64,000 nucleotides of DNA from Raja brachyura (taxonomy: Eukaryota), in NCBI GenBank assembly GCA_963514005.1, contig OY740810.1, positions 496,001 to 560,000 of the forward strand, given 5' to 3'. Below the pieces are notes generated by a model, which was not told the DNA's origin, searched no databases, and saw only the letters and a program-made list of their open reading frames with translations. Made by a program: the position numbers and the translations under genes. Shown one piece after another: positions 2,591 to 52,440 of this stretch. How positions within the stretch are numbered: the stretch's first letter is position 1; the number at the start of each line of letters is the position of its first letter.

Positions 2591-3749
2591 CAAAATAAGA
2601 GAAATAATTAAAACCTTGTGCACCATTTACATAGAATATGCACCAACATGTTCACAGTCAAAATATGGAAGCAAATTTGATATCAAGCCACATGGTGACA
2701 TTTAGGTAAATGAACAGAGATTGGTTAAAGAGCTAAAATATAAAAATCCAAAATATAGAACCTTGGGAACGAAAGACACAGACAACGTTTTCAACCATTA
2801 AAATTGATAGATTAGGAGTTTAAAAGTTTTACATGCTAATTTTAACATAGAAGACATTTCTGAATGGCCTCTGACGGAAGGAAAACTGGAGGCAGTGGAA
2901 ATTGGAGACTATTCATTCGGACGTGCTGTCAAAGAAAATGAACCATGGAGAGCTTTTGTTGTATGGAATGTACCATTATTATCCGTTGCAAGTTGGAGTT
3001 TGAAAGATGATCATAAATGCACTGCTGGGGAAGTGTTTTTTAAGCAGATATGTTATTGGCATTTAATAGACTTTTGGATAGACACGTGGATATGCAGGGA
3101 ATGGAGGGATATGGGATATGGGTTATGTGCCGTGTGGCATCGCGGAAGTGCCAGGGTGACCATGACTGCACCAACACTGGTAGTAGGGTAATGTCAGTAA
3201 AAATGTTTAATTTTGAATGGCGAGAAAGTCCGGGTCCATGGGGGCACTCAGTCCCTCGTCGTCAGTGAGGAGGAGCTGGCCATGTTGGACACTCTCATCA
3301 GCAGGAGTTGCTGCAGGTCTCAGGCTTCCTCCAAGCCTGTGGAAAGAGATGGCATTAGTGAGGGGTCTTCTACTTTCCTCCCTGCCTTGCTTTCTCTTGG
3401 CCAAACATCCCATGATTCATGAGAGTGGAGCTGATGAGCTGTGGCTGTTGCTCCAATTCCAGCTCATTGCTCACAGCTTTGTCGGGCCTCGGCTCCATCC
3501 AGAGAGCAGCTCATTGGATTCTCATGGCCTCTCTGCCAATGCTGGGGAACGCAGGGCCCAATGGGAGGATGTAGAGAAGGAATGGTCTTGGCCTCATTAT
3601 CAACACTGACATTGTGGGCCGAAGGGCCTGTTCTTGCACTATATTGCCTTATGTTGCATGTTGTACAAACTCTCTGCAACTTATTATAATTGGGAAATAA
3701 CCTGAATGGAAAATTTGTGAAGACATTTTTTCAGCTATTTGATTTCCAA

Positions 3750-3811
3750 TTTTACTTCGGAGTCACGTGAGTGACTTCGTGAAGACCCCGCCAGGCACGC
3801 ATGCGCGACAT
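3750..3811 (+). repeat. DIRS left terminus (left extension + left ITR)
   Basis: 3776-3811 is the exact reverse complement of 8845-8880 (36/36); 3750-3785 is the exact reverse complement of 8628-8663 (36/36). Confidence 0.95.
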
Positions 3812-4049
3812 ATCGTCGACCGCATGCGAGCGACAGGCAGGGAGGAGCGTTGCTCCTCTGCTGCTGGGACCTGCAGGTAAGTAAAACACTAACCTGCGGT
3901 CTTTTTCTTCTAGGTGGCCCTGTCGCAGGGTCTCGCAGCCGCCTCGGATCTGACTGCTGCGGCAGTCAGCGGCGGCTCCAATAGTTGGAGTCGGGAAGCC
4001 CGTTGACCCAGGAGGGTCCGGGCTCATACACTCGCCGGCGGAGGACGGC

Positions 4050-4570
4050 AGAGGCAGCCCGACTCCACACCGCAGCCCGCAGGGGACGCCGCGGGCGAAA
4101 AGGAATGGGGCTTGCCGGCTCGCTGTCAAAAGTTCGCGACGGCAGCGCGGCAGCCCCGACTCTACACCTCAGCCCGCGGGGAACACCGCGGGTTGGCGGT
4201 GTACATGTAGGCGTGGGGCTTGCAGGCTCGCCGTTCAAAGTAGGAACGGTAGAGCGGCAGCCCCGACTCTACACTGCAGCCGCGGGGGATACTGCGGGCT
4301 GGCGGTGTGCATGCAGGAGTCGGGCTTGCAGGCTCGCCGTCAGAAGTTTCAACGGCGGAGCGGCAGCCCCGACTCTACACCACAGCCCGCGGGGGTGATA
4401 CTGCGGGCTGGCGGTGTGCATGTGGTGTAGGGCTTGCTGTGCTTGCCATGGGCAGCAGCCCGACTCTACACCGCAGCCTGCAGGGGTTCTGCGGGTTGCT
4501 GGCATTCAGGGAGAAGCAGGCTTGCAAGCAAAGGCAGCCTGACTCCACACTGCAACTGCAGGGATTCTGT
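4050..4570 (+). repeat. About 6 imperfect 80-107-bp GC-rich tandem units in the DIRS 5' region
   Basis: Motif ggcagc(c)ccgactctacac recurs at ~4052, 4149, 4256, 4362, 4455, 4533. Confidence 0.85.
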
Positions 4571-5169
4571 GGCCTGGCTACATTAAAGTGCCCTGCTACT
4601 CTAGGGTATGCATTGTCTTCAAGAAGTTCCGACTGCCAACATATAAAAGTTATTAAAGCATGAGAGGCTGGTCACCATACTTCTTAAAGACCCTCAGGTA
4701 AGATACTAACTTTGAATAGCTAAGCGTCTGTATTCGAGTTTGCTCACAGAGGGATGGAGACCAGAATGAAGGCAGCGAAGCAGGTCTCCAAGGGCCGTGC
4801 GACTTCAGATGGGAGTCAGCGGCCACCATTCCAGAAGAACGCGGAGGTCGGGGAGCCCTGCGCAGCCAGGACCCGTCTCTCCACCACGGCTGACCATGGG
4901 GCCGCAAAATGGTGGAGCACCGCGTGGGAGCAGGATGGGCAAGACCTGGACTCCCTACCACTCTCACCTATGCATAGTGACTGTGGGGCAAAGGTGCGTA
5001 AACATGTGACCCGCTCGGCGGCTCGTTTTGTCTCTCCTACTATGCAGGTATCAGAGATGGGGAGAGCTGCGCACAGGTCATGCCCCGCTGCAGTGGGAGG
5101 CATCGACATACCGCCGGGGGTAACCTGCTAGACTGCAGGCCGGTGATGGACCTGCTGGAAATCAGGGAG

Positions 5170-5740
5170 CCCTGCAGGAGCAGGAGGTACCGGTGTCCAC
5201 CGGAACAGGCTGCCGGAGCGCAGACCGGTGGCAGCAGTTTACGGCTAGGCAACCCCATTGCTACGGGTAACGCCGGCTATGCGCCCTCATGGACCCGTGT
5301 GGTTAAGGGTGACGGCAAGCCTGCACGGACAGCGGAGCCGGTATTGGGGACCGGTACCGATCCTTCCCTCTGCCTTCCCACCAGGCAGAGGTGCCGCTTA
5401 GGTCCAAACGACGGCGGACTAGCGGTATGTCCGTGCAGGAGTCGTACAGCCTGCGGCAGCAGGAGGTACCGGCACTGCACCGGAACAGGCTGCCGGAGCG
5501 CAGACCGGTGGCAGCAGAATACGGTTAGGCAATCCCGTTGCTGCGGGTAAAGCCAGCCAAGCGCCGTCACAGACCCCTGGGGGTGAGGGTGACGGTGTGC
5601 CTGCACAGACCACGGACCGGTATTGGGGACCGGTTCCGACTCCTTTCCTCTGCCTGCTCGTCAGGTAGAGAGGCCGCTAAGGTCCGAGGGATGCCGGGCT
5701 AGCGGGTTGTCCGTGCGGAAGTCGTTCAGCCCCGCAGGAG
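5170..5740 (+). repeat. Two diverged ~279-bp tandem copies inside DIRS
   Basis: caggaggtaccgg...caccggaacaggctgccggagcgcagaccggtggcagcag at 5181 and 5460; ccggtattggggaccggt also duplicated. Confidence 0.9.
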
Positions 5741-5859
5741 CGGGTGCTGACGAGTACCTGTCAGCCACTTCGTTGAGGTGTGACCTACTGGCAGAAGCCC
5801 CAGCGACTCATCAGGGCCTGGGGAAGTCGACCTGTTGTCCGTGTGTAGCGGCAGCGGTC

Positions 5860-6730
5860 GCATGGCTAGGATGGAGCTAATGGTGGAGCAACTATATCAG
5901 CAGGACCTGGGTCGGCAAGAGCAGGAGTCTCAGCGGTCTGGGAGTTCGGATCATGACCACCACCTTCAATCTCACCTTCGTCCATCGGGAGTGCTAGCAT
6001 TCAACAGATGGCCGATTTGACAAAGCAGCGGCAGCAGAAGAGCCCACTGCTCTCGATCCAGAAGAAGAAGTTGGAGGTGTCGAAAATCCGAAACCTGTTT
6101 TCAGGGGTACCGCTGCACTCTACATTGGCAGTAAGTATTAATTCTTGACGACACACCAGTTCCTAGACCAGGTGCTTTCAGAAACACGGAGAAGTACAAG
6201 GATCCTGGAAACTGTGTTACCCTGAACGTCCCGAGGGTCGACTCAGCCATCTGAGGGAACATAATTTCCAATGCGAGGGAACAAGAGATGAAGAGGCAGA
6301 AAATTCTGAAGCTATTGGCGTCGGGCATCACGGCGCTCATCAGGACCCTCGATGGGGCAGGTGCATCCGCAGAGCAGCAGGATGCTCTAGCCCTCCTGTG
6401 TAGCACACTTCGGGAAACTGTTTTAGTCAGAGCTCCATCCGGCCCGACATTAACCCTGAATTCGCTGGGTTGGGTCGTACCTCCACCACACCTCCAAGAC
6501 AGCTGTTTGGGGAGGACCTGCCCAAGCCGGTCAAAGACGAGGCCATCAAGAACACATCCGCACCAGCTCCCCAACAGCAGAAGCCTTGTTAGGGCAGAGC
6601 CAGCATAGACTACCTCACCACACACCAGCTGCAGGAACAAGGATTTACCGAGGCGATCGAGCAGCACCCAGCAAAGAAGGAATACTAGAAACCAGAACGT
6701 CAGGCTCGCCGGTAACCATGGAGGTAAGGG
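5860..6730 (+). pseudogene. DIRS ORF1 (gag-like) remnant, frameshifted
   Basis: ORF 6288-6608 KRQKILKLLASGITALIRTLDG...QQDALALLCST aligns by eye with KMQRVLKLLVSGIMVFTRTMEG...HQEALGLLCST of ORF 62598-63188. Confidence 0.8.
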
Positions 6731-7700
6731 GGCCTGGTTCTCTTGGAAGTGCTGCATGCATAACCTCACAAGTAGGAGGGAGGTACATACATTCTGCGGC
6801 TTTGTTTGTCACTATCCAGGGAACAGAGCTATAGCCATAATAGATTCATGTAACAGCCTTGCTTGCGCCAGGGAACTGACTTTCGACATGCTGCTAAGCT
6901 ATGGGTAAATTGGAGCTACATTCCAGCCACATAATTGGGTCGTTACGCTATCAAAGCTTGGGTGAATAAGCAAAATCTCGGCATGTATAGCGAATGCTTA
7001 CAATTACGAGCTTAAGCAGCTGCCAATCCAAGCATAATTGAGGTACAACGGTGGATTAGCAATGGTTGTGATTGTTAAATCCCATCATTACATCAAACCT
7101 AGTAGTCGCGTTACAAACCGACGCAAGCGCCGAGGGCTGGGGAACTACTGACACCATTCCAGGTGGGGCGGTAAATGGGATTGCATGAGTCTACTTTCTT
7201 CAATCACAAGGTATAAACTGTTTAGAAATGCTGGGAGCATGTCCAGGGCTGCGCATTAATGTACTAATCTGCAGCATACGTATGTTCGTCTTCAAAATAA
7301 TACCACTGAGGAGGCATATTAAACCTTATGGGTGGCGTCAAGTTAATATCTTGGGATGAATTGGAAACATTAATTTGGCTCTGGTGGATTGAAAGAAATT
7401 TGAGTTCAGCTATGTACCTTCTGGATAAGCTCAATATAGTGGCGGACACCAGGTCACAAGTATTAATAACGACATCAAGTAGATTGAACCTCCAAATATC
7501 TGCTAAAATTATAGCCTAATATGGAATACCAGATTTCGACCTCTTTGCGTCCAGGTTGAGCCATTGGATACTAACATATGTCTTGAGAACTAGATCCTGG
7601 GGCAGTGGCGATGGACGCGTTTTCGCTACGTTGGGGGGAAATGCGGGGTTTCTATGTTTTCCCCATTCTGCTTCATCAGACAGGTGCTGCAGGATACGCA
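6720..7700 (+). pseudogene. DIRS pol remnant: RNase H and methyltransferase-like domains, RT core missing
   Basis: LQTDASAEGWG (7111), GINCLEMLGA, IWLWWIERN..LNIVADTRS, GIPDFDLFASRL (7523), AMDAFSLRW; no YLDD region; many frameshifts and stops. Confidence 0.85.
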
Positions 7701-7719
7701 ACCAGGCTCTGCAACATAA

Positions 7720-8420
7720 AGGACCATGGATGTCAAACAGCATCGTGCAGAGAGAGTCCAGTAGGAAGCAGTACCTCGCCTACATAAGGATATGGGAGGT
7801 TTCTGTAGTCGGACCTAGACCATCTACATATCTGCTATACTCTCCAAGGTGCTGGAATACTCATGGGTCGTCATTATGACGAGTCCCTCAGTTACAGTGC
7901 TGTATACAGTGCCAGGAGTGCATTGTCGTCCTATCGCTAGATTGGACTGGGATGAGGTAGTGTTGACCCTCCTCAGGAGCTGGTCGCCTATGATGGACTT
8001 ACTCACCTTCAAAGTGCTTATGATAATGGCACTGAACACAGCTCAACAGGTCATGACTTTACAGGAATTAAACCTGGATAGAATGATCGGACCATACTAA
8101 GGTAACTTCTTTACAGAAGAATTACTTACACTACACAGACCTGGGACTACACGTCTGCAAATGGGCATCAGATGTATGGAGACGGGTCTGTTTCAGCCAT
8201 GGTAACCCACGTCACAGGGTGATTGTGCAGACTATCTCCAGATGACACGAGGTGGTTTTCGGTGCAGCAGGTAAGACACTAATATTTTAAATGTCATTCT
8301 ATCAGGGCTGCATCCACATCAGTGGCAAGGACTATGGCGGTGTTCATGGATTTTGGCCTCGCAATAGCGAGCTGGGCCAGTGAATCTACACTTCAGCGGT
8401 TTTATAACTGATTTATAACC
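7720..8420 (+). pseudogene. DIRS tyrosine recombinase remnant
   Basis: WDEVVLTLLRSW..LTFKVLMIMALNTAQQV (ORF 7849-8100), HSIRAASTS (8295), ASWASESTLQRFYN (8367); DIRS YR motifs HxxR, W, FY; frames broken. Confidence 0.85.
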
Positions 8421-8627
8421 GCTCCCGCAACGTTGGCGGATTCAGTTTTAAGTGCTGTTCCCTAAACGTTTGTCCCCGAGTTCAGGGGGTTATTGTTGTA
8501 TTAACAAATGTTATTATTTTTTCAGCTTGTTCAAGTCTGGAATACGTTAACATACTTCCTCCATCAGAATTACGGCAGTGTGTGAGCATGGGCGTGGTCC
8601 AGGGCATGTAATCACAGAGCTTTGAAA

Positions 8628-8740
8628 TCTTCACGAAGTCACTCACGTGACTCCGAAGTAAAATAGTAAGATTAAACAAGAACTTACCAGTTTGAAGTTT
8701 GATCTTTATTTTATGAGGAGTTGCGATGAGGGATTTCGTG
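8628..8740 (+). repeat. DIRS internal complementary region (ICR)
   Basis: 8628-8663 = reverse complement of 3750-3785; 8660-8740 = reverse complement of 8875-8955 (81/81); the halves overlap in AAAA. Confidence 0.95.
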
Positions 8741-8844
8741 CCCTCCGCTCCCAACCCTCTATTATATATTCAACTGGTATGGTCAAGTTTTAATCTTACT
8801 ATCTTCGGTTTGTGATCTGTGATTCCACACCGCTGCTTTGAAGA

Positions 8845-8955
8845 ATGTCGCGCATGCGTGCCTGGCGGGGTCTTCACGAAATCCCTCATCGCAACTCCTC
8901 ATAAAATAAAGATCAAACTTCAAACTGGTAAGTTCTTGTTTAATCTTACTATTTT
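8845..8955 (+). repeat. DIRS right ITR plus right extension
   Basis: Exact matches to the left ITR and to the ICR; ends ...cttactatttt. Confidence 0.95.
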
Positions 8956-9879
8956 AGTCTGACTTGCGCCGTTTTATGACAATAATCAGACATTTATTTC
9001 CTCTGATTTATTTCCATAATTTTTCCGATGGTTAGTCATTCTTAGTATTTTTATGTTGCCATTTTTAACTTATTTGGATAATAAAGCAGACATTTCTTTG
9101 GTAGCAAAAACTATTTGAAAGAATCAGAATAATTGGCTCTTCTCTGACAGGTGGAATGACTTTGATCGGGAAATGTGAAATGTCTGATACAACTCACAAA
9201 TGTTAGATCCAAAACACGTAATTCTGTTGTCCGATTCTTGCTGTTGACATCTACCACCAACCCAACACGTCTGCACTCACAAAAAGGGATTCAGACTGAA
9301 AAACACTTAAGGCAAGGCAATGTTCATCAATTTAATCCCCTCCCCATCCCAAACCATTTAACTGTTTGTTACAAAAATAGTTTTGACATGTTGCCTGTGC
9401 TTTCCAGCAGAGAGAAAGGATTTGCTGCCTTAATTCTGAACTGAAGTGCGCCCTGCTGACAACTGCAATTTTCTTAATGGCACTAATATAAGAAATTGAA
9501 TAAATCGTCTGGGATGACAAGTTCTGAAAGGCTCCGCTAATCTTCATATATCGTAAAGATTCACTGTCCTTTCATTGAAAAACCCATGCAGGTTGTTTTC
9601 CTGCATTCTCACAAGTTGAGTGAACAGTCTTCATCCACGATCAACTTGCACCTTCCACGTCATTTCACGCAGGTTCTAAATTTCACCAAACTTGTTGATG
9701 TGTTGTGATGGGTTTCTGCTGTCTCCATCCCTCAGTCTCAACAGGTGCAGAGTAAAGATAATCAGGTTCCCTCCTGGTCACTAGTAGGTGTCCCAGTGTG
9801 GGACCCCAAGTGCCAGTCAGCATCAATCCATGATATTCTTCACTCTCTCACCTATGCTTGCTTGACTGATTTTCACTAT

Positions 9880-11480: not shown

Positions 11481-11759
11481 CTGCAAAACTGTCTAACTTT
11501 CTCTTAAATCTCATATGGGGCATCATGTGGTTGTGAAGCATGGCGTGCTAACTGCGTTGAGCGTTTGCCCACTCTGTTTTATTGTATCCCGGTGTCATGG
11601 TCTTGTTTTGAATCGACCCTTGAATGTGTTTTCCACTGGGGTAGCATGGGAAATGCCTCAACGCCTCTCCCGGGATACGCTGAGAAGTTTGTTGTCCTTC
11701 AATAGCGATTGTTTACTTTAGTGCCATGCAGTCACAGAGATTTTAAAGATTCAACAGCA

Positions 11760-11898
11760 TTATTATCTAAATGGCGTCGTTGGGAAACGGGGAAGTACAA
11801 CGGGATCTGGGAGTCCTTGTTCATCAGTCTATGAAAGTAAGCATGCAGGTACAGCAGGCAGTGAAGAAAGCGAATGGCATGTTGGCCTTTATAACAAG
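11760..11898 (+). mobile_element. Short internal CR1 ORF2 fragment
   Basis: LGNGEVQRDLGVLVHQSMKVSMQVQQAVKKANGMLAFITR, near-identical to ORF 13266-13916. Confidence 0.85.
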
Positions 11899-13174
11899 GT
11901 GGGGGACCAGCATTCTGGCCAGCAGGTTTGCCACTGCGACACAGTTGGTTTAAAACTAAATAAAGGGGGGGGGCGGTGTCAAATGAGACAGTCGACAATG
12001 GAGTTAAAGGGACAGTTAATGGCCCCAGAATTAATGGGAAACAAAGCTCACAAAGGGACAGGAGAGTATGGCCAAGTGTAATGGGGATCAAAGTGAATGG
12101 TGAGATGCGTAAGGAATTAAAAGTATTGTATTTGAATGCGCAAAGTATAAGAAGTAAAGTAGATGAGCTTGAGGCTCAGATAGAGGTTGGTAGATATGAC
12201 GTTGTGGGGATTACTGAGACGTGGCTGCAGGAGGATCGGGCCTGGGAACTTAATATTCAGGGTTATACATCCTATAGAGAGGACAGGCAGGTGGGCAGAG
12301 GAGGGGGGGGGGGGGTTGCTCTGCTGGTGAGGGATGGAATTCAGTCCCTTGCGAGGGAAGACATACGGACTGACAAGGTAGAGTAACTGTGGATTGAGTT
12401 AAGGAATTGCAAAGGCAATTGGTGTTAGCTACAGACCCCCAAATATTAGCCCGGATATAGGGTGTAAGTTGCAGCAAGAGTTAAAACTGACATGTAACAA
12501 AGGTAATGCCACTGTGGTGATGGGGGATTTCAGTATGCAGGTAAACTGGGAAAATCAGGTTTGTTCAGGACTCCAAGAAAGGGAGTTTGTAGAATGCCTC
12601 TGAGATGGATTCTTAGAGCAGCTTATAATGGTGCCGACCAGAGAAAAGGCAATTCTGGATTTAGTGTTGTTTAATGAACCAGATTTGATAAGAGAACTCG
12701 AGGTAAAGGAACCGCTTGGAGGTGGTGATGATTTGTTTTAATCTGCAATTTATGAAGGAGAAGGTTTAATCGGAAGTGTCAGTGATGCAGTTGAACAAAG
12801 AGGACTATGAAGGCATGAGAGAGGAGCTGGTCAACGTTGACTGGAAAGGGATCCTAGCAGGAATGATGGTGGAACAGCAATGGCAGAAATTTCTGGACAT
12901 AATCCAGAAGACGCAGGATCGTTTCATTCCAAAAAGGAAGAAAGATTCTAAGGGGAGTAGAAGGCAACTATATAACACAAAAGAGTAGCCTGAAGCCAGA
13001 GGATTGGGAAACTTTCATAGGACAACACAAGGAAACAAAACGGGCAATACGGGCTGAAAAGATGAAGTATGAGGGGAAGCTGGCCAGGAACGTAAAGGAC
13101 AGTAAAAGCTTTTTTAGATATGTTAAGAGAAAATGAATAGCAAAGTCAAATGTAGTTCCCTTGAAGGCAGACAC
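11899..13174 (+). mobile_element. CR1 LINE host copy, part 1: end of ORF1 and APE endonuclease region
   Basis: GTSILASRFATA (SGNH-esterase-like ORF1 end), LYLNAQSIRSKVDELE..VGITETWL..GGGVALLV; colinear with the 41641-42534 copy; breaks after ttgaaggcagacac. Confidence 0.9.
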
Positions 13175-16100
13175 AATAGACAATAGACAATAGGTGCAGG
13201 AGTAGGCCAGTCGGCCCTTCGAGCCAGCACCGCCATTCAATGTGATCATGGCTGATCATCCCCAATCAGTACCCCGTTCCTGCCTTCTCCCCATATCCCC
13301 TAACTCCGCTATTTTTAAGAGCCCTATCTAGCTCTCTCTTGAAAGTATCCAGAGAACCTGCCTCTACCGCCCTCTGAGGCAGAGAATTCCACAGACTCAC
13401 CACTCTCTGTGAGAAAAAGTGTTTCCTCGTCTCCGTTCTAAATGGCTTACTCCTTATTCTTAAACTGTGGCCCCTGGTTCTGGTCTCCCCCAACATCGGG
13501 AACATGTTTCCTGCCTCTAGCATGTCCAAGCCCTTAACAATCTTATATGTTTCAATGAGATCTCCTCTCATCCTTCTAAAATCCAGAGTGTACAAGCCCA
13601 GCTGCTCCATTTTCTCAGCATATGACAGTCCTGCCATCCTGGGAATTAACCTTGTAAACCTACGCTGCACTCCCTCAATAGCAAGAATGTCCTTCCTCAA
13701 ATTAGGGGACCAAAACTGCACACAATATTCCATGTGTGGTCTCACTAGCGCTCTGTACAACTGCAGAAGGACCTCTTTGCTCCTATATTCGATTCCTCTT
13801 GTTATAAAGGCCAACATGCCATTTGCTTTCTTCACTGCCTGCTGTACCTGCATGCTTACTTTCATAGACTGATGTACAAGGACCCCCAGATCCAATTGTA
13901 CTTCCACTTTTCCCAACTTGACACCATTTAGATAGTAATCTGCCTTCCTGTTTTGCTACCAAAGTGGATAACCTCACATTTATCCGCATTAAACGTCATC
14001 TGCCATGCATCTGCCCACTCCCCCAACCTGTCCAAGTCACCCTGCATTCTCATAGCATCCTCCTCACAGTTCACACTGCCACGCAGCTTTGTGTCATCTG
14101 CAAATTTGCTAATGTTACTTTGAATCCCTTCATCCAAATCATTGATGTATATTGTAAATAGCTGCGGTCCCAGCACCGAGCCTTGCGGTACCCCACTAGT
14201 CACTGCCTGCCATTCTGAAAGGGACACGTTAATCCCTACTCTTTGTTTCCTGTCTGCCAACCACTTCTCTATCCATGTCAGCACTGTACCTCCGATACCA
14301 TGTGCCCTAATTTTGCCCACTAATCTCCTATGTGGGACCTTATCAAATGCTTTCTGAAAGTCCAGGTACACTACATCCACTGGCTCTCCCTTGTCCATTT
14401 TCCTAGTTGCATCTCAAATAATTCCAGAAGATTAGTCAAGCATGATTTCCCCTTCGTAAATCCATGCTGACTCGGACCGATCCTGTTACTGCTATCCAAA
14501 TGTTCGGCTATCTCATCTTTTATAATTGACTCCAGCATCTTCCCCACCACCGATGTCAGGCTAACTGGTCTATAATTACCTGTTTTCTCCCTCCTGCCTT
14601 TGTTAAAAAGTGGGATAACATTAGCTACCCTCCAATCCACAGGAACTGATCCTGACTCTATAGAACATTGGAAAATTATCACTAATGCACCCACGATTTC
14701 TAGAGCCACTTCCTTAAGTACCCTGGGATGCAGACCACCAGGCCCTGGGGATTTATCAGCCTTCAGTCCCATCAGTCTATGCAACACCATTTCCTGCATA
14801 ATGTGGATTTCCTTCAGTTCCTCTGTCACCCCAGATCCTCTGGCCACTACTATATCAGGAAGATGGTTTATGTTCTCCTTAGTGAAGACAGATCCAAAGT
14901 ACCTGTTCAACTCATCTGCCATTTCCTTCTTCCCTATAATAAATTCACCTTTTTTGGTCTTCAAGGGTGCAACTTTGGTCTTAACTAATTTTTTCCTCTT
15001 CACATACCTAAAGAAGCTTTTACTATCCTGCTTTATATTCTTGGCTAGTTTACCTTTGTACCTCATCCTTTCTCCCCGTATTGTCTTTTTGGTTATCTTC
15101 TGTTGTTCTTTAAATATTACCCAATCCTCTTGCTTCCCACTCATCTTTGCTACGTTGTACTTCTTCGCTTTAATTTTTAACCTGTCCCTGACGTCCCTTG
15201 TCAGCCATGGTTGTCCCTTTCTCCCCTTGGAATCTTTCTTCCTCCTATGAATGAACTGATCCTGCACCTTCTGTATTATTCCTAGAAATACCTGCCATTG
15301 TTGTTCCACTGTCATCCCTGCTAGTGTATCTTTCCAGTCAACTTTGGCCAGCTCCTCCCTCAAGGCCCCATAATCCCCTTTATTCAACTGCAACACTGAC
15401 ACCTCCGATGTAGTCATCTCCCGCTCCAATTGTAGATTAAACCTGACCATGTTATGGTCACTGCCTCCTATTGGCTCATTAACCTCGAGGTCCTTTATCA
15501 AATCCGGTTCATTACATAACACTAAATCCAGAATTGCCTTCTCCCTGGTAGGCTCCAATACAAGCTGTTCAAATAATCCATCACAAAGGCACTCTACAAA
15601 GTGCCTTTCTTGCTCATGATTTTCCCAGTCTACCTGCATGTTGAAATCTCCCATAACAACCACAACATTACTTTTACTACATGACAATTTGAACTCCTGA
15701 TTCAACTTGCGCCCTATGTCCAGGCTACTGTTTGGGGGTCTGTAGTTAAGTCCCATTAGGGTATTTTTACCCTTACAATTCCTTAGTTCTATCCATACTG
15801 ACTCCACATCTCCTGCTTCAATGTCATCCCTTGCAAGAGACTGAATTTAATTCCTCACCAACAGGGCAACCCCACCCCCTCTGCCCACCTGTCTGTCTTT
15901 TTGATAGGAGGTATACCCTTGAATATTCAGTTCCCAGCCCTGACCCTCTTGCAGCCAAGTCTCAGTAATTCCCACAACACCATACTTGCCAGTTTCTAAC
16001 TGAGTCTCAAGCTCGTCCACTTTATTGCTTATACTTTGCGCATTCATACACAGCAATTTCACTCTGTATTCACTTCCCCCCTCGAACTGCTCGCAATTGG

Positions 16101-16255
16101 CCCTGACCTTACTCTGTTGTCCATTCCCATTAATTCGAGAATAGTTTGTAATTTTTGCTGTAGCCACTTTCCCTTCAACTCCATCTTTATACACCCAATT
16201 TGTCAATCCCTCCCCCCCACTATTTTGTTTAAACCCACACATGTAGCCCTAGCAA
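13175..16255 (-). mobile_element. CR1 LINE, near-complete ORF2 (APE+RT) with frameshifts, nested antiparallel in another CR1
   Basis: ORFs 15847-16242, 14371-15807, 13928-14398 (YLDFQKAFD, GVPQGSVLGP, FADD), 13266-13916; (CTATTGT)n tail at 13175-13192. Confidence 0.95.
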
Positions 16256-17828
16256 ACGAGTGAAATTATTATGGGGAACAATGAGGCGAGAAATAGTATT
16301 GGGTAGGCTAATGGGACTGAAGGATGATAAATCTCCTGGGCCTGATGGTCTGCATCCCAGGGCCCTCAGGGTGGAGGCTCTAGAAATAGTGGACGCATTG
16401 GTGATCATTTTCCAATGTTCAATAGATTCAGGATCAGTTCCTGTGGATTGGAGGATAGCTAATACTATCCCACTTTTCAAGAAAGGAGTGAGAGAGAAAA
16501 AGGGGAATTACAGACCAGTTAGCCTGGCTTCGGTGGTGGGAAAGATGCTGGAGTCAATTATTAAAGAGGTAATAATGGGGCATTTGGATAGCAGTAAAAG
16601 GATTAGTCCAAGTCAACATGGATTTATGAAAGGGAAATCATGCTTGACTAATCTTCTGGAATTGATTGAGGATGTGACAAGTAAAATGGATGAAGAGGTT
16701 CCAGTGGATGTGGTGTATCTGGACTTTCAGAAAGCCTTTGATAAGGTCCCGCATGGGAGACTGGTGACTAAAATTAGAGCACATGGTATTGGGGGTAGGG
16801 TGTTGACATGGATAGAAAATTGGTTGGCAGACAGGAAGCAAAGAGTAGGAATGAAAGCGTCCTTTTCAGAATGACAGGCAGTGGCGAGTGGAGTGCCGCG
16901 AGGCTCAGTGTTGGGGCCGCAACTGTTTACCATATATATTAATGATTTGTAAGAGGGAATTAGGAGCAACACTAGCAAGTTTGCAGATGACACAAAGCTG
17001 GGTGGCAGTGTGAACTGTGAAGAGGATGTTAGGAGGTTGCAGGGGGACCTGGACAGGTTGCGTGAGTTGGTAGATGCGTGGCAGATGCAGTATAATATAG
17101 ATAAATGTGAGGTTATCCAGTTTTGTGGCAAAAACAAGGGGGCAGATTATTATCTCAATGGGGTTAAGTTAGGTAAGGGGGAGGTGCAGCGAGACCTGGG
17201 TGTCCTTGTACGCCGGTCACTGAAAGTTGGCGTGCAGGTACAGCAGGCAGTGAAGAAAGCTAATGGAATGTTGGCCTTCATAACAAGAGGATTTCAGTAC
17301 AGGAGTAAAGAGATTCTTCCTCAGTTGTATAGGGCTCTGGTAAGACCACTTCTGGAGTATTGTGTACAGTTTTGTTCTCCTAATTTGAGGAAGGACATCC
17401 TTGTGATTGAGGAAGTGCAGCGTAGGTTCACGAGATTGATCCCTGGGATGGCGGGACTGTTATATGCAGAAAGATTGAAAAGACTAGGCTTGTATTCACT
17501 GGAGTTTAGAAGGATGAGGGGGGATCTTATAGAAACATATAAAATTATAAATGGACTGGACAGGCTAGATGCAGGAAAAATGTTCCCAATGTTGGGGGAG
17601 TCCAGAACCAGGGGCCACAGTCTTAGAATAAAGGGGAGGCCATTTAGGACTGAGGTGAGAAAAAACGTTTTCACCCAGGGAGTTGTGGATTTGTGGAATT
17701 TTCTGCCACAGAGGGCAGTGGAGGCCAAATCACTGGATGGATTTAAGAGAGAGTTAGATAGAGCTCTAGGGGCTAGTGGAGTCAATAGATATGGGGAGAA
17801 GGCAGGCACGGGTTATTGATTGGGGACG
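16256..17828 (+). mobile_element. CR1 LINE host copy, part 2: RT and C-terminus
   Basis: Resumes acgagtgaaattattatggg (cf. 42532 acgggtgaaattattatggg); ORFs 16260-16874 and 17010-17819; in-frame stops. Confidence 0.95.
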
Positions 17829-18223
17829 TCTTCTTCTGTTGTGTGTCTTTTAGACTTGCAGCTCCGTTGAGGCGAGCCAGGCCAACGTGTCATCGTCAAT
17901 CAGACCTCGTTCACCATTCGGTGGCTGGTGTTTCGGGCCACTGGTGACTATGTGCTCTACACTCCCCACACTCGCAGGAGGCGCTCGCTGTCCACGAGGC
18001 CCCACCTCTTTATCGCTACTCCATAGCGTCCAATGCCTGTCCTCAAGCGGTTGAGCATTGTCCACTGCTTTCGGGGCAGGTCCTGGCCAGAGACGTCCAT
18101 GGGGTCATTGATGTACTGGTGTCGCCTAGATGGTTCTGCTGACTTCCACTGGTCTCTCCATCTCATCTTGACCCAGGCAGCCTTAGAAGCGCTAGCCGGT
18201 GCTGTGCAGAGCAGCTCCTGGGC
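17829..18223 (-). mobile_element. 3' fragment of a non-CR1 LINE (Vingi/Ingi-like or RTE-X-like) inside the CR1 3' UTR
   Basis: GQDLPRKQWTMLNRLRTGIGR..KRWGL then a degenerate CECG..HIV zinc knuckle; (GAA)n tail at 17829-17837; splits the CR1 sequence ggggacg|atcagcc. Confidence 0.7.
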
Positions 18224-18305
18224 GATCAGCCATGATCACAATGAATGGCAGTACTGGTTCGAAGGGCCAAATGGCCTCCTCCTGCACCTATTTTCTATGT
18301 TTCTA
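18224..18305 (+). mobile_element. CR1 host copy, part 3: 3' UTR and tail
   Basis: gatcagccatgatcac...cctgcacctattttctatgtttcta. Confidence 0.9.
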
Positions 18306-18714
18306 AGAGGAGTCAAGCATAGGAGCAAAGAGTTCCTTCTGCAATTGTACAGAACCCTTGTGAGACCACACCTGGAGTATTGTGTGCAGTTTTGGTCCCT
18401 AATTCGATGAAGGACATTCTTGCTAATGAGGGAGTGCAGCGTAGGTTTACAAGGTTAATTCCCGGGATGGTGGGACTGTCATATGCTGAGAGAATGGAGC
18501 AGCTGGGCTTGTACACTTTGGAGTTTAGAAAGATGAGAGGGGATCTTATTGAAACATATATAAGATTGTTAAGTGTTTGGACATGCTAGAGGCAGGAAAC
18601 ATGTTGGGGGAGTCCAGAACTAGGGGCCACAATTTAATAATAAGGGGAAAGCCATTTACCGAATGAGGGGTTAGCCGAATGGCCTACTCCTGCACCTATT
18701 GTCTATTGTCTATT
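18306..18714 (+). mobile_element. CR1 3' fragment with internal deletions
   Basis: RSKEFLLQLYRTLVRPHLEYCVQFWS; (CTATTGT)n tail at ~18696-18714. Confidence 0.9.
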
Positions 18715-20004: not shown

Positions 20005-20790
20005 CACTGTTGCTGTCTGTGTGTAATTTACACTTTCAACCCATGACCATCTGAGGTTCCTCTGGGTTTCCTCCCACAAAGGAAAGTTACGTGGTTAAAG
20101 GGCCTGTCCCACCAGCATGCAACTCTATGCAATTAGCGCGACCTAACGTGGTCGCTTGAACCGTCCGGCGTCGCGGGGCCGGTCCCACTTCGATCGCCGG
20201 AGCCGTGCGGAATTGTGCGGAGTTCTCCTGAGTTCGTCCCGACACAGCGCGGGGCTCCGAAAAACCGACTATGTCCAAAAATTCCGCACGGCAACGGCTT
20301 GTCGGCTCGCAGTCGCCTCGACATTTACACACCGCCCGGACATCGTGCCTCCGTGACCCTCTCTGTAGGTGCCTCCGTGACCCTCTATGTGTGTGGCTCC
20401 GTGCCTCCGTGACCCTCTCTGTGTGCCCCTCTCCGTCCTGGCGAACCTACCTTGGACTTGCTCCAAGTTCGCCTCACTTTGCGCCACGTTGTGCCACTCA
20501 CCCGACCTCCACGCGGCCCTCGCTGCCGGTTTGGTTGCGCTTGCCGCATGCAGGCGCATGCTGGTGGGAACAGCCCTGTACAGGGGATCACCCGACCTCC
20601 GCGCGGCCCCCGCTGCCGGTTTGATCGCGTTCATCGCATAGAGTTGCATGCTGGTGGGACAGGCCCTTTAGTAAGTTAATCGGTAAACACTGTAAAAGTG
20701 TGGCGAATAGAATGGGATTCATGTAACAGGCTGCTTAATGATCGGTGTGGACTCTGTGGGTCGAAGGGCATTTTCTATGCTGTATAAATA
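20005..20790 (+). mobile_element. Degenerate V-SINE/HE1-like SINE split by a MITE
   Basis: tgctgtctgtgtgtaattt...gggtttcctcccaca before, and gtaagttaatcgg...gggtcgaagggc after, the TIR element; matches SINE 48340-48610. Confidence 0.65.
20098..20668. mobile_element. Non-autonomous DNA transposon (MITE) with 33-bp perfect TIRs
   Basis: aagggcctgtcccaccagcatgcaactctatgc (20098-20130) = reverse complement of 20636-20668; flanked by TA on both sides (alternatively TTAA/TTAG); no transposase ORF. Confidence 0.9.
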
Positions 20791-28110: not shown

Positions 28111-29440
28111 CAAAGGTTTCCCCCAATTAGGATTATCTTTATCATTTTGCAATCTATACAGAGCATTGTTTAGACATTTTGTGTCAGCACAGTTGTGTGG
28201 CTGTTGGAGTTTGCAGGTAATCCAGGTAATCCACTGCACTGCACTCTACTGCAGGCAATCCAGTTTCTCCCTGATATGCAGGGACATGCAGGTTGGTAGA
28301 ATAATTGGCCAGAGTTTAGATTTGTGGTAAAATCTAGATGTTGATGGGGATGTGGGGAGAATAAAATAGCATTAGTGTAGGCGTGGATTTGCAGAGCCTG
28401 TTTGCATGCAGTATGACTCTTTGACACAAGGAACCTACAAGGATGATCTAGCCAATGCATCAGTTCTCTCTGCAGCTACAACCGCTGCATCAAAGGCAGT
28501 AGGGCCTCTCTCTCCACTGTGGGGCACTGTGACTATATGTGGTGGGACTTACAAACATGCACTATTTGTCAAGGTATCTGACACTGTTTCCATCACCTTC
28601 ATCGCCCAGCAGGCACTTGGCCGCTCCATTCTCTCCCCATTCCCCAAGTCACAAACTATCTGGACTTTAACTGTTGCTGGAACGTTTTATGTAACAGCAC
28701 AGTGGGTCTGTATAAAACACAGATGCTATTGTCCATAAGGTAGATCCTCACCATCTGCTCAAGGGCATCTGTGGACTGTAGTCCATGCTGGCTCTGCTCA
28801 TTCTCTGAATGAATTAAAACAACAATAATAAGGGATTCTTGAATGTACAGGAGAGGTGCAGAGAAAGGCAACAGCATTGATCCTGGCTATAAAAGGTGCA
28901 GATTTTAAAGAGATGGGACTATCACCCTTATTCACTCTCAACATTCTGGAAATAGCTAGTAATTTAAACTGTCAACAAAGGTATTTTATTCATGAAACAA
29001 TGCCAACTGGTTACTTTCTTTCTGAGAGTTGCCTCTTGGAAACTTTAAGTTTAGGTTTATTAATATCACATCGATCGAGGTATAGTGAAAAGCTTTGTTT
29101 TGCATGCTATGGAGAAGAAGCTGTCACTGTCTGATGGTGCACGATTCAAGCTTCTGTACCTATTACTGGAAGAGTTATCCATATGAAGCATACCTTAGGC
29201 GACAGCTTACAAGCAAAGTTGTTGTTCAACATTACACCTGATGCATAACTACATCCCTTCGTCAATAATGAAAACCAAAAGGATAAAAACATCCATATAT
29301 TTGTCCAGGTCCATATACCTTACTTTGGCTCTGTTCTCGTAATGCCAGAGTTAAAGGACTATCCTTATCCATCACAGCTACATCATCCCTATAATTGCAA
29401 GAAGCGAAGATACTCAAATATGGATCTGTCTGATGATTTA

Positions 29441-32400
29441 ACATAGAAACATAGAAATTTGGTGCAGGAATAGGCCATTCGGCCCTTCGAACCTGCACCG
29501 CCATTCAATATGATCATGGCTGATCATCCAACTCAGTATCCCGTACCTGCCTTCTCTCCATACCCTCTGATCCCCTGAGCCACAAGGGCCACATCTAACT
29601 CCCTCTTAAATATAGCCAATGAACTGGCCTCAACTACCCTCTGTGGCAGAGAGTTCCAGAGACCCACCACTCTCTGAGTGGAAAAGGTCCTTCTCATCTC
29701 GGTCCTAAAGGATTTCCCCCTTATCCTTAAGCTGTGACCCCTTGTCCTGGACCTCCCCAACATCGGGAACAATCTTCCTGCATCTAGCCTGTCCAACCCC
29801 TTAAGAATTTTGTACGTTTCTATAAGATCCCCTCTCAATCTCCTAAATTCTAGAGAGTATAAACCGAGTCTATGCAGTCTTCGTTCATAAGACAGTCCCG
29901 ACATCCCAGGAATCAGTCTGGTGAACCTTCTCTGCACTTCCTCTATGGCAATAATGTCCTTCCTCAGATTTGGAGACCAGAACTGTACGCAATACTCCAG
30001 GTGTGGTCTCACCAAGACCCTATACAACTGAAGTAGAACCTCCCTGCTCCTATACTCAAGTCCTTTTGCTATGAAAGCTAACATACCATTCGCTTTCTTC
30101 ACTGCCTGCTGTGCCTGCATGCCTACTTTCAATGACTGGTGTACTATGACACCCAGGTCGCGCTGCATCTCCCCTTTTCCTAATCGGCCACCATTTAGAT
30201 AATAGTCTGCTTTCCTATTTTTGCCACCAAAGTGGATAACCTCACATTTATCCACATTATACTGCATCTGCCAAACATTTGCCCACTCACCCAGCCTATT
30301 CAAGTCACCTTGCAGTCTCCTAGCATCCTCCTCACAGCTAACACTGCCCCCCAGCTTAGTGTCATCCACAAACTTGGAGATATTGCCTTCAATTCCCTCA
30401 TCCAGATCATTTATGTATATTGTAAATAGCTGGGGTCCCAGCACTGAGCCTTGCGGTACCCCACTAGTCACTGCCTGCCATTGTGAAAACGACCCATTTA
30501 CTCCTACTCTTTGCTTCCTGTTTGCCAGCCAGTTCTCTATCCACATCAATACTGAACCCCCAATGCCGTATGCTTTAAGTTTATATACTAATCTCTTATG
30601 TGGGACCTTGTCGAAAGCCTTCTGGAAGTCCAGATACACCACATCCACTGGTTCTCCCCTATCCACGCTACTAGTTACATCCTCGAAAAATTCCACAAGA
30701 TTCGTCAGACATGATTTACTTTTCGTAAATCCATGCTGACTTTGTCCAATGATTTCACCACTTTCCAAATATGATGCTATCCCATCTTTAATAACTGACT
30801 AGCAGTTTCCCCACTACCAATGTTAGACTAACTGGTCTGTAATTCCCCGTTTTCTCTCTCCCCCCCTTCTTAAAAAGAGGGGTTACGTTTGCTACCCACC
30901 AATCCTCAGGAACTACTCGAGAATCTAAAGAGTTTTGAAAGATTATCACTAATGAATCCACTATTTCCGGAGCTACTTCCTTAAGTACTCTGGGATGCAG
31001 CCTATCTGGCCCTGGGGATTTATCGGCCTTTAATCCATTCAATTTACCCAACACCACTTCCCGACTAACCTGGATTTCACTCAAGTCCTCCTTTGACCCA
31101 CGGTCCCCTGCTATTTCCGGAAGATTATTTATGTCTTCCTTAGTGAAGACGGAACCAAAGTAGTTATTTAATTGGTCCGCCATATCCTTGTTCCCCATGA
31201 TCAACTCACCTGTTTCTGACTGCAAGGGCTACATTTGTTTTAACTAATCTCTTTCTTTTCACATATCTATAAAAACTTTTGCAGTCAGTTTTTATGTTCC
31301 CTGCCAGTTTTCTTTCATAATCTATTTTTCCTTTCCTAATCAAGCCCTTTGTCCTTCTCTGCTGGTCTCTGAATTTCTCCCAGTCCTCTGGTATGCTGCT
31401 TTTTCTGGCTACTTTGTACGCATCATCCTTTGCTTTGATACTATCCCGGATTTCCCTTGTTATCCACGGATGCACTACCTTCCCTGATTTATTATTTTGC
31501 CAAACTGGGATGAACAATTTTTGTAGTTCATCCATGCAGTCTTTAAATGTCTTCCATTGCGTCTCCATCGTCAACCCTTTTAGAATTGATTGCCAGTCAA
31601 CCTTGGCCAATTCACGTCTCATACCCTCAAAGTTACCTTTCTTTAAGTTCAGATCCATTGTTTTTGAATTAACAATGTCACTCTCCATCCTAATGAAGAA
31701 CTCGACCATATTATGGTCACTCTTGCCCAAGGGGGCATGCACAATAAGACTGCTTACTAACCCTTCCTCATTACTCAATACCCAGTCTAAAATAGCCTGC
31801 TCTCTCGTTGGTTCCTCTACATGTTGATTTAGATAACTATCCCGCATACTTTCCAAAAAATCCTCTTCCTCAGTGCCCCTGCCAATTTGATTCACCCAAT
31901 CTATATGTAGATTGAAGTCACCCATTATAACTGTTTTACCTTTGTCGCAAGCATTTCTAATTTCCTGTTTGATACCATCCCCAACTTCATTACTACTGTT
32001 AGGTGGCCTGTACACAACTCCCACTAGCGTTTTCTGCCCCTTAGTGTTTCGCAGCTCTAGCCATACCGATTCCACATGCTCCAAGCTAATGTCCTTCCTT
32101 TCCATTGCGTTAATCTCCTCTCTAACCAGCAACGCTACCCCACCTCCTTTTCCTATCTCTCTATCCCTCCTGAATATTGAATATCCCTGGATGTTCAGCT
32201 CCCAGCCTTGGTCACCCTGGAGCCATGTCTCCGTGATCCCAACTATATCATAATCATTAATAGCTATCTGCACGTTCAACTCCTCCACCTTATTACAAAT
32301 ACTCCTAGCATTGAGACACAAAGCCTTCAGGCTTGTTTTTACAACGCTCTTACCCCTCATACAATTTTGTTGAGAAGTGGCCCTTTTTGATTTTTGCTCT

Positions 32401-32503
32401 GGTTTTGTCTGCCTGCCACTTTTACTTTTCACCTTGCTCCCTATTGCTTCTACCCTCATTTTACACCCACCTGCCTCTCTGCTCTTGTACCCATCCCCCT
32501 GCG
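29441..32503 (-). mobile_element. CR1 LINE with essentially complete ORF2 (two frameshifts)
   Basis: ORFs 31206-32459 (APE: ETWL, GDFN, SDH), 30788-31225, 29533-30768 (RT: YLDFQKAFD, GVPQG, FVDD); (TTTCTATG)n tail at 29441-29458. Confidence 0.95.
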
Positions 32504-33444
32504 AATGAAGAGTTCCTTACCTCTCAATGTCTCTGTTGAAGATGAGGATATGTCCGATGGTCAAACTGCCAATCCTTTGAGAATCTCACAAATGTGTTTG
32601 CTGCCTTTTGAGGCAGATTATCTTTCACCAGCTGCTCAAGAATTCTATACCTGGCAATCTGTCCTTTGAATTTGAAATTGATTGGTCACCTTGATAGCAG
32701 TGCATTTCTCATATGGAAGTATGGTCTATTACGAGCCACAGTCTCAGCCTGTATCTCTGCTGTCTGGGTCAGTCCCTTCACACACTCCATCCTCTTATCC
32801 TGTCTGGCAGCCTCTTGCATCAATAGCTGAGAGACCAGTATATGATTTCCTATGTTCACTCTCTCCACCTCTATACTCTCATTTTCTCATCTCCGCCTAC
32901 ATGGGTTTGTTTCGTCATTGTTTGACACAAATATTCTCTGCGTCTGCTGGGTGTTCTGTGGAGGTGCTCATGCAGCAATTAACTCAGGTGCCTCATGTTC
33001 ATGGTGTACAGTTGTCTTGTCCCTATATGCCCTTTGCAACTTCTCCAATCCAAAGGTTACGGTGCTTCCTCAACATGGCTTCATTTCTGCCAAAGTTCTA
33101 CTTGGGTAAACTAGAGATTGAGGCTGCATCTGAATATCCTTTTGTTTGCATGCTCACTAAAGAGGCAGCCTGGGATATTTCTGTTGTATTGAAGTTGCTG
33201 CATAAATGGATGTTGGTTTTGTGCCTGGGTTTTTGCTTGTTCTACCTAGGTTAAGAGATTATATGACTGGAGTTGGGACAGGATCATTATAATTGTGGGG
33301 AAGTCTGTCATGGTACACATATCCAACATGATATATGGATGGTATATCCAACATAAGTCTAAATTTGATGGACAAGTTGATTCTTCATCGCCTGTTATCT
33401 TTGTAACTCAGCAAGGACTCCAGTTAACTGGACATCTCCTGAAA

Positions 33445-36435: not shown

Positions 36436-37109
36436 ATTACCACACTCAATTCATGCTCCATCTCTATTCAACCATGAACAGTGGTGGGAATGGGCACAAA
36501 TGTGGGAAAGATACAGTGTTTTAGGTTTGACCTGAGGCACATTATCGGGCCATTACTCTATCCAGCCACAATGACCTGACTTGGGAGTGCTTCATGCCAC
36601 TGCTGTTCCATTCATTAGTGACAACTGGACAATTATGCCTTAAAAAATAAATCTGCTGCAAAATATAGTGGATTGTTTTGGCTTTCGTCAATAGTGTAAA
36701 ATGGGTGATGATCAGTTGTCAGCTTAGATATTAGAGAACAGCAAATCAGGCAAAATGTTGAATAGCATTGGGTTGATGCCTGAAGTCAAAATGATCATTG
36801 TATCTCTAATAACAACATGACCCTTTCACCTAACATTAAAACAAATAATAGGGCCAGCCAAATGTGTACAGTGGCCAACAGGGCAGGCTGATTTTTGATG
36901 GTGATTGACTCACCTGCTGACTCTCTAAAGACCGCCCAAACAGTCACCTCAACCACCAAGAGGCGCAAGTACAACTCCATGATCAGAAGGTTCATCTCCA
37001 AGTCATGTACCATCCTGATTTGGTTGTATATTGCTGTTCCTTCATTCCCACTAAAAAGCACGGCTAGGTATCTTCACAAGAAGGACTACAGTGTTCATAA
37101 AAACAGCCA

Positions 37110-37750
37110 ATGCCATGTTGCTCTTCATTGCAAGATGATTTGAGTTTAGGAGCAAGGAAGTCCTACTGCAGTTGTACAGGGCCCTGGTGAGACCGCACCT
37201 GGAATATTGTGCGCAATTGTGATCTCCTAATTTGAGGAAGGACATTATTGCCATTGAGGGAGTGCAGTGTAGGTTCACCAGGTTAATTCCCGGGATGGCA
37301 AGACTGATGTATGATGGAAGAATGGGTCGACTGGGCTTGTATTCGCTGGAATTTAGGATGAGAGGAGATCTTATAGAAACATATAACATTGTTAGAGAAT
37401 TGGACAGGCTAGATGTAGGAAAAATGTTCCCGATGTTGGGGGAGTCTAGAACCAGGGGTCACAGTTTAAGAATAAGGGGTAGGCCATTTAGGATTGAGAT
37501 GAGGAAAAACCTTTTCACCCAGAGAGTTGTGAATCTGTGGAATTCTCAGCCACAGAAGGCAGTGGAGGCCAATTCTGAATGTTTTTAAGAGGAATTAGAT
37601 TTAACTCTTAGGGCGAATGTAATCGAGGGATATGGGGAAAAAGCAGGAACGGGGTACTGATTTTGGATGATCAGCCTTGATCATATTGAATGGTGGTGCT
37701 GGCTCGAATGGCCTATGCCTGCACCTATTTACTATGTATCTATGTTTCTA
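37110..37750 (+). mobile_element. CR1 3' fragment
   Basis: ORF 37232-37588 RFTRLIPGMA..RTRGHSLRI; ends tatgtatctatgtttcta. Confidence 0.9.
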
Positions 37751-37964
37751 TCATCACCACCTTCTGAAAGGCGCCAAGGTCTGGCAGGAAATTATGATGC
37801 TTAAATGCTGTATATAATTCATCTCGTGGCCAGTCGAAGTGGATAGGTATCAGGAGTGGGAACGTTTAACTAAAGATCCCTTCTCAGTTTGTGCAATATT
37901 AATAGTGGTTGTGGCCTCACAGTTAGTACCTTTTGCTGAGAATAGGTAATTTAATTTAATATTA

Positions 37965-41627: not shown

Positions 41628-41640
41628 TATACACAATTAA

Positions 41641-48750: not shown

Positions 48751-49754
48751 TATATACGGAGCTCACTGGCAGCTGGGGGCCTTGCCTAGGTGCTCACACC
48801 ACCAATAATCACCAGTGCTAGTGAGGCTACATAGAAGAGCTGTCAAACCTCCATCTTACAGCAGTGATTAGTGAAATATTGTAGTATTGTAGGAAGTGTT
48901 GTTCATCCTGTTGAAGTCCTGAAGCCATGAATGGTGTATTTTGTAAATGTGAGTCTTTCATGAGTTTTAAAATCGTTTGTTGTCCGTTTCGTGTAGATAC
49001 GTATGTTCCAGCAACAGGATAGTGATTCATATTAACTTGAGCACATTTCTCATTGCTTTACCTCCCGGCTCCAAGGCCAACCGTATCAACCACTTAGTAC
49101 CAGTTGAAACTAATTTAATCACCACAAGTCAAAAATCGTTAATATAATCTCCACTGCGTAAAATGCACTTGGTTACTGAGTTCTCAACGGAACTGGTGCT
49201 GATTCAATTTGACCAGTTTGTTTCTGAATAAGAAAGTCACAGAACACATAGGAGCTGAAAAGTTGCATGCTTTGAAAAAATAATCTTACTCAGATGAAAT
49301 GTTAAAAAGAAGCCTTATCTGCTTTTCTACGGATTAGATGAATGTTAGATCCCACGGCACCATTTGAGCAGAAATTCTCTGTGCATATCCACCAAAAACA
49401 GAATATGAACTGAATATTAATGTAATTGTTATTTATGCAACTCTCTTGTGCATAAGTTGCTTGCTAACTAACAAAGGATTCACTTCAATTCATTAGACAA
49501 GGTGCTTTGCAACCTTCCTGTAAAATACCCATAAGGTTTTCTTATTATCTTATTTTCTGTTTTTCTTTCTTTCTGTAATGAGGATCCAGAAATCTATTCA
49601 GAAATGAACTTTGGATAAAACCAGAGATTTAAACAAAGTAGTGATAAGTTTGTTCTTGTTCTCCAGTCTCAGTTAAAGCATTAATGGTTATTTTTATGGT
49701 CTATATGTTAAGGAAATGATTCCATGGAGCCAAATGCAGGCAGGTGAGAATTGT

Positions 49755-52425: not shown

Positions 52426-52440
52426 ACCCATGTTCTCCAA
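50767..52440 (-). CDS. Uninterrupted reverse-transcriptase ORF of the truncated Rex1/Babar-like LINE (557 aa)
   Basis: [44 protein letters not shown]; first residues come from flanking DNA, so probably not expressed as annotated. Confidence 0.75.

Follow-up and report, generated by a model that had tools for sequence, protein, structure and literature searches.

A DIRS1-type retrotransposon of Raja brachyura with perfectly matched ends and broken genes, probably copied in trans

DIRS1-type retrotransposons have a characteristic layout that combines inverted terminal repeats (ITRs) with overlapping internal complementary regions (ICRs), as described in PMC3266345. In the published replication model, a short piece of the left repeat and the greater part of the right repeat are missing from the transcript, the ICRs serve as templates for rebuilding, and a circle is integrated by recombination; the circle has been detected and the model is not fully proven (PMC5633606). 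We have analyzed a retrotransposon of this type at positions 3749-8956 (+ strand) of a window of 64,000 nucleotides (nt) from Raja brachyura (GCA_963514005.1, contig OY740810.1, positions 496,001-560,000 of the forward strand; all coordinates are those of the window). Its ends match perfectly, its genes are all broken, and the core of its reverse transcriptase (RT) is gone. The element was very probably copied in trans after its genes had died, and we favor, with a probability of roughly 0.58, the reading that it belongs to a non-autonomous DIRS1-type lineage propagating in trans.

Two mollusc DIRS1-like elements with short conserved ITRs, AcaDIRS2 and LgDIRS3, share with this element the order gag, pol (RT, RNase H, and methyltransferase), tyrosine recombinase (YR), ICRs, right ITR, and extension, together with an ATT-type start (PMC3266345). 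The divergent ITR, conserved ITR, and extension measure 27, 36, and 49 nt here, 34, 36, and 48 nt in AcaDIRS2, and 30, 36, and 49 nt in LgDIRS3, with ICRs of 37 and 82, 44 and 88, and 42 and 86 nt, respectively, whereas the fish, frog, and lizard elements in the same table have conserved ITRs of 102-148 nt (PMC3266345, Table 3). Both mollusc elements are annotated as coding (PMC3266345), unlike the element studied here, which has lost RT by deletion and retains no intact gene.

Non-autonomous members of the DIRS order have also been published. TOC1 of Chlamydomonas is one such retrotransposon, with a copy number that varies among strains (PMC9940879), but the TOC elements have split direct repeats at their ends (PMC3266345) and not the ITRs and ICRs seen here. 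SIRE of Trypanosoma cruzi is a named non-autonomous DIRS-order element; it is short and derived from split direct repeats, and its mobility is left open in PMC6681497. The zebrafish DIRS-N1 to N4 families, labeled Ngaro, are near-full-length DIRS-order elements of 5,796-6,632 bp present in 425-3,066 copies, the zebrafish tables also list DIRS-N5 and N6, and DIRS-N1_NV measures 5,654 bp, with all DIRS-N entries compared here by name, length, and count only (PMC9341512). In Xenopus, broken open reading frames (ORFs) or repeats are found in 36/75 and 13/20 Repbase families (PMC9210276). The initial annotation had proposed the locus as the best candidate for an undescribed system; this was overstated, given that TOC1 and SIRE are published and that zebrafish DIRS-N elements of 5.8-6.6 kb are catalogued. 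Our literature search, with Repbase and most subscription reviews outside it, returned no described non-autonomous DIRS family of the ITR/ICR type. In the DIRS-N names we take N to stand for non-autonomous and NV for Nematostella, following Repbase usage.

The element and its terminal features are the following.

3749-8956, + strand: complete DIRS1-type element, with the core ATTTTA at 3749-3754 and 8951-8956.
3749-3811, + strand: left terminus, with a divergent ITR (3749-3775, 27 nt) and a conserved ITR (3776-3811, 36 nt); 7 CpG in 63 nt.
8628-8664, + strand: left ICR, exact inverted complement of the left end at 3749-3785 (37/37 nt).
8659-8740, + strand: right ICR, exact inverted complement of the right end at 8875-8956 (82/82 nt), sharing the circle-junction core (8659-8664) with the left ICR.
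8845-8956, + strand: right terminus, with the conserved ITR (8845-8880), a divergent ITR to 8907, and an extension (8908-8956, 49 nt).

The two conserved ITRs are inverted and identical at all 36 positions, as first annotated, and the perfection noted for the ICRs also stands; their lengths, given initially as 36 and 81, are each one base longer, as ATTTTA recurs at the two element ends and in the overlap of the ICRs. In each of 100 mononucleotide shuffles the best exact inverted match spanned just 10-18 nt. The reverse complement of the ICRs reads as the right end joined to the left end through ATTTTA, and the NTT-type termini match this circle junction without a separate target-site duplication. 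The flanks outside the two cores differ from each other, and one core copy presumably derives from the target site. The terminal repeats are inverted, in contrast to the split direct repeats of PAT/TOC, Ngaro, and VIPER elements, and no long terminal direct repeats were found in the element. Sequence common to the two ITRs and two ICRs amounts to 10 nt in three of the four and 6 nt in all four, the DIRS1-like criterion being at least 10 nt in all. The structure of the element is DIRS1-like by the other published criteria, and autonomy is lost.

A second DIRS1-type element starts at 61786 (+ strand) and continues beyond 64000, its right end lying outside the window. Its RT frame (63202-63651) was used as a query and returned 85 Pol-like proteins, 52 of which, with lengths of 600-770 amino acids, form our Pol profile; the other 33 were excluded by length. 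Aligning the 3749-8956 element to this profile and to the reference proteins P0080, P0082, and P0089 revealed homology to gag, RNase H, methyltransferase, and YR in DIRS1 order, in the form of broken remnants.

5766-6783, + strand: gag-like ORF1 remnant, broken, with 8 frameshifts in 314 aligned codons, ending within the first pol codons.
6593-6688, + strand: second, out-of-order copy of a 30-codon gag segment, whose collinear copy lies near 6140-6212.
6772-6800, + strand: junction of the RT-core deletion, with ~740 nt lost, a size measured on the 61786 element.
6800-7716, + strand: Pol remnant (end of RT, RNase H, methyltransferase-like), with 13 frameshifts, one stop on the aligned path, and 19 of 62 conserved columns changed.
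7720-8411, + strand: YR remnant with frameshifts, internal deletions, and stops, keeping HSIR (8295) and the terminal Tyr (8403).

Domain names were taken from the Pfam matches of the reference proteins, those to RNase H, Dam, and phage integrase being below the curated cut-offs, and Pfam searches with the element's own fragments gave no relevant match. That RT is absent, as the initial annotation had it, was confirmed in two ways. A tblastn match to the element was obtained with 59 of the 85 DIRS Pol proteins, none of which covered YxDD, and an RT-core profile scored 39.7 and 52.1 on the two strands, compared to 39.9-59.6 in five shuffles and 648 on the 61786 element. The first pol codons, near 6772, directly abut the end of RT.

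The genes had also been described as full of indels and stops. The indels are indeed numerous, with 26 frameshifts in 777 aligned codons across the four remnants (a tally that omits ~8170-8285, where the alignment shows at least one more), compared to 7 in 1089 codons for three copies of long interspersed nuclear elements (LINEs) in the window. Stops on the aligned paths are few, one in Pol (278-299 codons) and six across gag and YR, some of these in out-of-frame stretches, and the damage consists chiefly of frameshifts and missense changes. Large losses took out the RT core and left YR with at least three gaps. An autonomous DIRS1-like element would have an intact Y[L/I]DD RT and open ORFs; here the RT core is gone and the frames are broken. 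Also as first noted, the YR motif reads TAQQ, with Gln (CAG at 8047-8049) in the place of an expected Arg, P0089 having AQR and P0082 SQR. We take the lost residue to be the first catalytic Arg of YR, from its position in the PF00589 match of P0082 (residues 704-867, below the curated cut-off). A PDB search with P0082 returned just RT matches among the best 60 of 203.

The extent of interior decay was estimated from the Pol columns with at least 85% conservation. The element has changes at 19/62 of these, including the DN-type motif of RNase H, which 47 of the 52 intact Pols have; the intact Pols themselves, which the profile favors since they belong to it, deviate at 4.3% of columns on average and 11.9% at most, and the 61786 element at only 2/60 (Fisher p 6e-5). 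Leaving out six changes that need more than one base, 13/56 columns remain changed. Assuming that 76% of changes alter a residue, the two fractions convert to ~0.14 and ~0.10 substitutions per site, respectively. In the ends and ICRs, on the other hand, none of 288 distinct partner-checked bases differs, which places a 95% upper bound of ~1% on change since the last copying; the probability of finding no difference at the interior rate is ≤8e-13 for all 288 bases and ≤2e-6 for the 136 bases in long-range pairs. The decay of the interior, by ~10-14%, therefore predates the last event that made the ends identical, as the initial annotation had proposed. The genes other than RT decayed free of selection. 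Ten of the 13 single-base changes in Pol are transitions. Strand-biased G-to-A hypermutation was considered and dismissed, with three G>A and four C>T among the 13.

The same contrast could arise if an intact element had been inserted long ago and decayed in place, hairpin-mediated repair or gene conversion having homogenized its ends. Pairing of the right end with the right ICR gives a hairpin of 82 bp around a 134-nt loop, with a predicted energy of -108 kcal/mol, a plausible substrate for local homogenization. However, two of the three matched pairs are 4.8-5.0 kb apart, have different partners, and are also perfect (P ≤2e-6), the divergent parts of the ITRs have remained unlike while each matches its own ICR, and the internal tandem repeats, at 81-83% identity, have not been homogenized. 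We find this explanation hardly credible.

The frameshifts could instead reflect an assembly artefact, in which a young element retains uncorrected long-read errors inside while its ends were polished near unique flanks. Frameshifts do lean to net -1 (18, with 8 that are net +1 or double -1), an excess short of significance (p 0.076), runs of at least five bases are scarce in 6780-8410 (1 versus 5.2 +/- 2.1 in shuffles), unlike in control regions, and every matched segment lies within ~330 nt of an element end. Retroviral RT, for its part, is reported to produce frameshifts at homopolymer runs (PMC3185545). Against an artefact, the damage is mostly substitution, with a majority of transitions, and large deletions; the other repeats of the window retain stop-free frames of 421-560 codons; LINE pairs in the window show 20-31 substitutions per indel, with the low frameshift count given above; and RT is missing even if some indels are errors. 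The Gln and a gap in YR also recur on a separate contig, as described below. Some of the single-base indels could be sequencing errors, but as an account of the whole locus this explanation is very unlikely.

As the element has no RT, its last copying would have used the enzymes of another element, and the mobilization in trans suggested by the initial annotation is supported, since RT and YR for the last replication had to come from elsewhere. On the published DIRS1 model, the element would be transcribed from its left end, and an autonomous DIRS would supply the Gag and RT/RNase H that take up the transcript. The ICRs would then serve to rebuild the absent ends, the product would be closed into a circle at an ATTTTA junction, and the tyrosine recombinase of the partner would integrate the circle at a matching genomic core. 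Over many rounds, selection would act on the cis signals alone and errors would accumulate in the old genes. Since in this model the ends are rebuilt from the ICRs at each cDNA synthesis, perfect ends date only the last round, and a family cannot be told from a single revival by the ends.

Copies elsewhere and CpG content both bear on whether copying in trans happened repeatedly. A search with the YR piece against 1.84 billion representatives gave five matches, three of them to repetitive proteins and two to YR proteins, P0089 and P0087. The latter, of 35 amino acids and from a separate 3,043-bp contig in ENA, is identical at 35/35 residues to 7990-8094, carries both the Gln and the four-codon gap relative to P0089, and stops one residue short of the window frame, perhaps because its contig ends there or because a lesion is not shared. 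The Gln and the gap, at least, therefore exist outside this assembly contig.

CpG retention, also pointed out in the initial annotation, holds for the ends and for the element overall, with an observed/expected ratio of 0.73 compared to 0.42 for the window, but is graded, the coding remnants having just 0.52-0.66. The ratio alone cannot date an element because the little-decayed 61786 element has 0.44. The 5' internal repeats, at ~82% identity, keep 30/44 CpG sites, compared to 5/23 in a LINE pair at 82% (p 6e-4). The cis signals look preserved: besides the 7 CpG of the 63-nt left end, this end is 70% identical to that of the 61786 element, compared to 62% for the best gag stretch. The large deletions, the CpG-rich and better-preserved ends, and the CpG retention of the 5' repeats are hints of repeated rounds, none of them decisive; several independent large losses (RT core and at least three YR gaps) in one round are unlikely.

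Several observations weigh against a propagating lineage. No second full copy of the element and no autonomous partner with the same termini were found within the 64-kb window. The protein search with the gag piece gave no match of at least 206 amino acids among 1248 candidates, a three-frame search of 7300-8414 gave only P0087 among 238, and an exact look-up found none of 26 window ORFs; with the window's own ORFs missing from the collections as well, blank protein searches say little. P0087 stands alone in its cluster and perhaps represents the same locus in another assembly or individual. The CpG retention of the 5' repeats is indistinguishable from that of a LINE pair at 93% (p 0.78), and their divergence may date from an autonomous ancestor. 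The estimate of interior decay is based on one frameshift-aware alignment and on references that are distant, the best ten having 37-43% identity.

The leading alternative is a one-off event, in which an old dead chromosomal copy was transcribed and copied once in trans, or template switching joined its interior to an active relative's ends, so that one round reset the ends and no spread followed. With ends rebuilt from ICRs (PMC5633606), one round may suffice, also, by extension, for the conserved ITR. The window and the protein collections gave no evidence of multiple copies, and CpG is partly depleted in the coding remnants. A further hint, of past template switching, comes from the gag segment that lies out of order at 6593-6688: it scores 58 against gag of the 61786 element, a value reached in 0/2000 shuffles, is only ~60% like the collinear gag copy in DNA, and was perhaps captured from another DIRS family. 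On the other hand, a simple revival requires that the promoter, ICRs, and recombination sites came through random decay of 10-14%, yet the ends are rich in CpG, a difficulty from which the chimeric form is exempt. The 5' repeats also speak against a single event, an argument weakened by their divergence possibly predating gene loss and by the comparison with the 93% LINE pair. We regard a one-off event as unlikely, though a serious contender, and retain a lineage propagating in trans as the better account.

Relatives of the 61786 element had been proposed as a possible source of the enzymes acting in trans. Our analysis does not support the 61786 element itself as the partner, though intact members of its family might act as helpers. 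The two elements share the first 7 bases, 70% of the left end over 100 nt, and 41-42% identity in the main gag blocks. The 61786 element differs in keeping its RT core, which has two frameshifts and two stops, in being little decayed at conserved sites, and in having no long 5' repeat region; its gag is broken. Its RT pieces have 63-73% identity to two proteins from ENA, no intact member of its family was found, and in the Atlas its gag leads to eukaryotic clusters and points weakly to LAP2alpha (0.88, 14% of members). It is a broken distant relative from another family and not the partner.

The 5' part of the 3749-8956 element, at 3950-5750, is a GC-rich region of ~1.8 kb with tandem units of 106 and 280 nt and no counterpart in the 61786 element. 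Its features are the following.

4054-4565, + strand: GC-rich tandem array of ~106-nt units, up to six degenerate copies.
4754-5131, + strand: 125-codon ORF starting with ATG, perhaps the beginning of ORF1; neither Pfam nor the Atlas gave a match.
5171-5731, + strand: two 280-nt tandem units, 81% alike, with differences of no clear codon periodicity.

Differences between the 280-nt units number 21, 13, and 15 by codon position, which gives no clear signal of a selected coding repeat. A splice-donor-like CAG-GTAAGT lies ~130 nt from the left end in both DIRS elements (3877-3882 and 61915-61920), and an acceptor-like site is found at 7679, directly upstream of YR; a spliced YR message is possible, but the resemblance of the two elements in this region is not significant. 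Short introns were considered as an explanation for the broken frames (donor-like sites at 3877, 4698, 6131, and 8271) and rejected, with 6131 and 8271 inside collinear gag and YR coding sequence and frameshifts of 1-2 nt. A duplicated leader or donor region (3870 and 4690 versus 61905) was equalled by 16-84 of 300 shuffles and is not significant, and a 235-codon antisense frame at 6101-6808 was reached in 49/500 block shuffles, as expected by chance. An Rfam scan of the window gave no matches.

The rest of the window holds further repeats, and the repeats of the window resemble those of a cartilaginous fish. Related LINE copies, which served as our controls and which we take to be CR1-like, are 72-93% alike, with some frames above 400 codons, at 11759-18714, 29431-32516, 37105-37751, and 41635-44302. 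At 50770-52860, a 560-codon reverse-strand frame, presumably LINE-like, adjoins a 184-base assembly gap (52677-52860). Tandem arrays at 49753-50295 (78-nt unit, 7 copies, 90%) and 58470-58780 (66-nt unit, 4.7 copies, 98%) are each related to dispersed repeats of the window. A near-palindrome at 54299-54481 is 90% self-complementary over 189 columns and consists of two short repeats in opposite orientation, and a CpG-rich patch at 20096-20670 (observed/expected 0.92) contains a 90-nt tandem pair and a 52-nt inverted repeat.

Non-autonomous derivatives are usual among retroelements, and as they are already known in the DIRS order, no new mechanism is indicated here. We tentatively raise the possibility, which we hold to be short of probable, that the element represents a previously undescribed vertebrate family of the ITR/ICR (DIRS1) type, non-autonomous and near-full-length, multi-copy and active until recently, in which genes rot and ends are rewritten from the ICRs in every round. 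Were this true, copies with nested lesions would record successive rounds of mobilization in trans, and variants common to an end and its ICR would put the templating of end repair by the ICR to the test in natural data. A family would also mean that RNAs retaining only ends and ICRs are substrates in trans for DIRS1-type enzymes, and would map the cis sequences that matter. Recently moved DIRS elements of this kind escape surveys based on RT.

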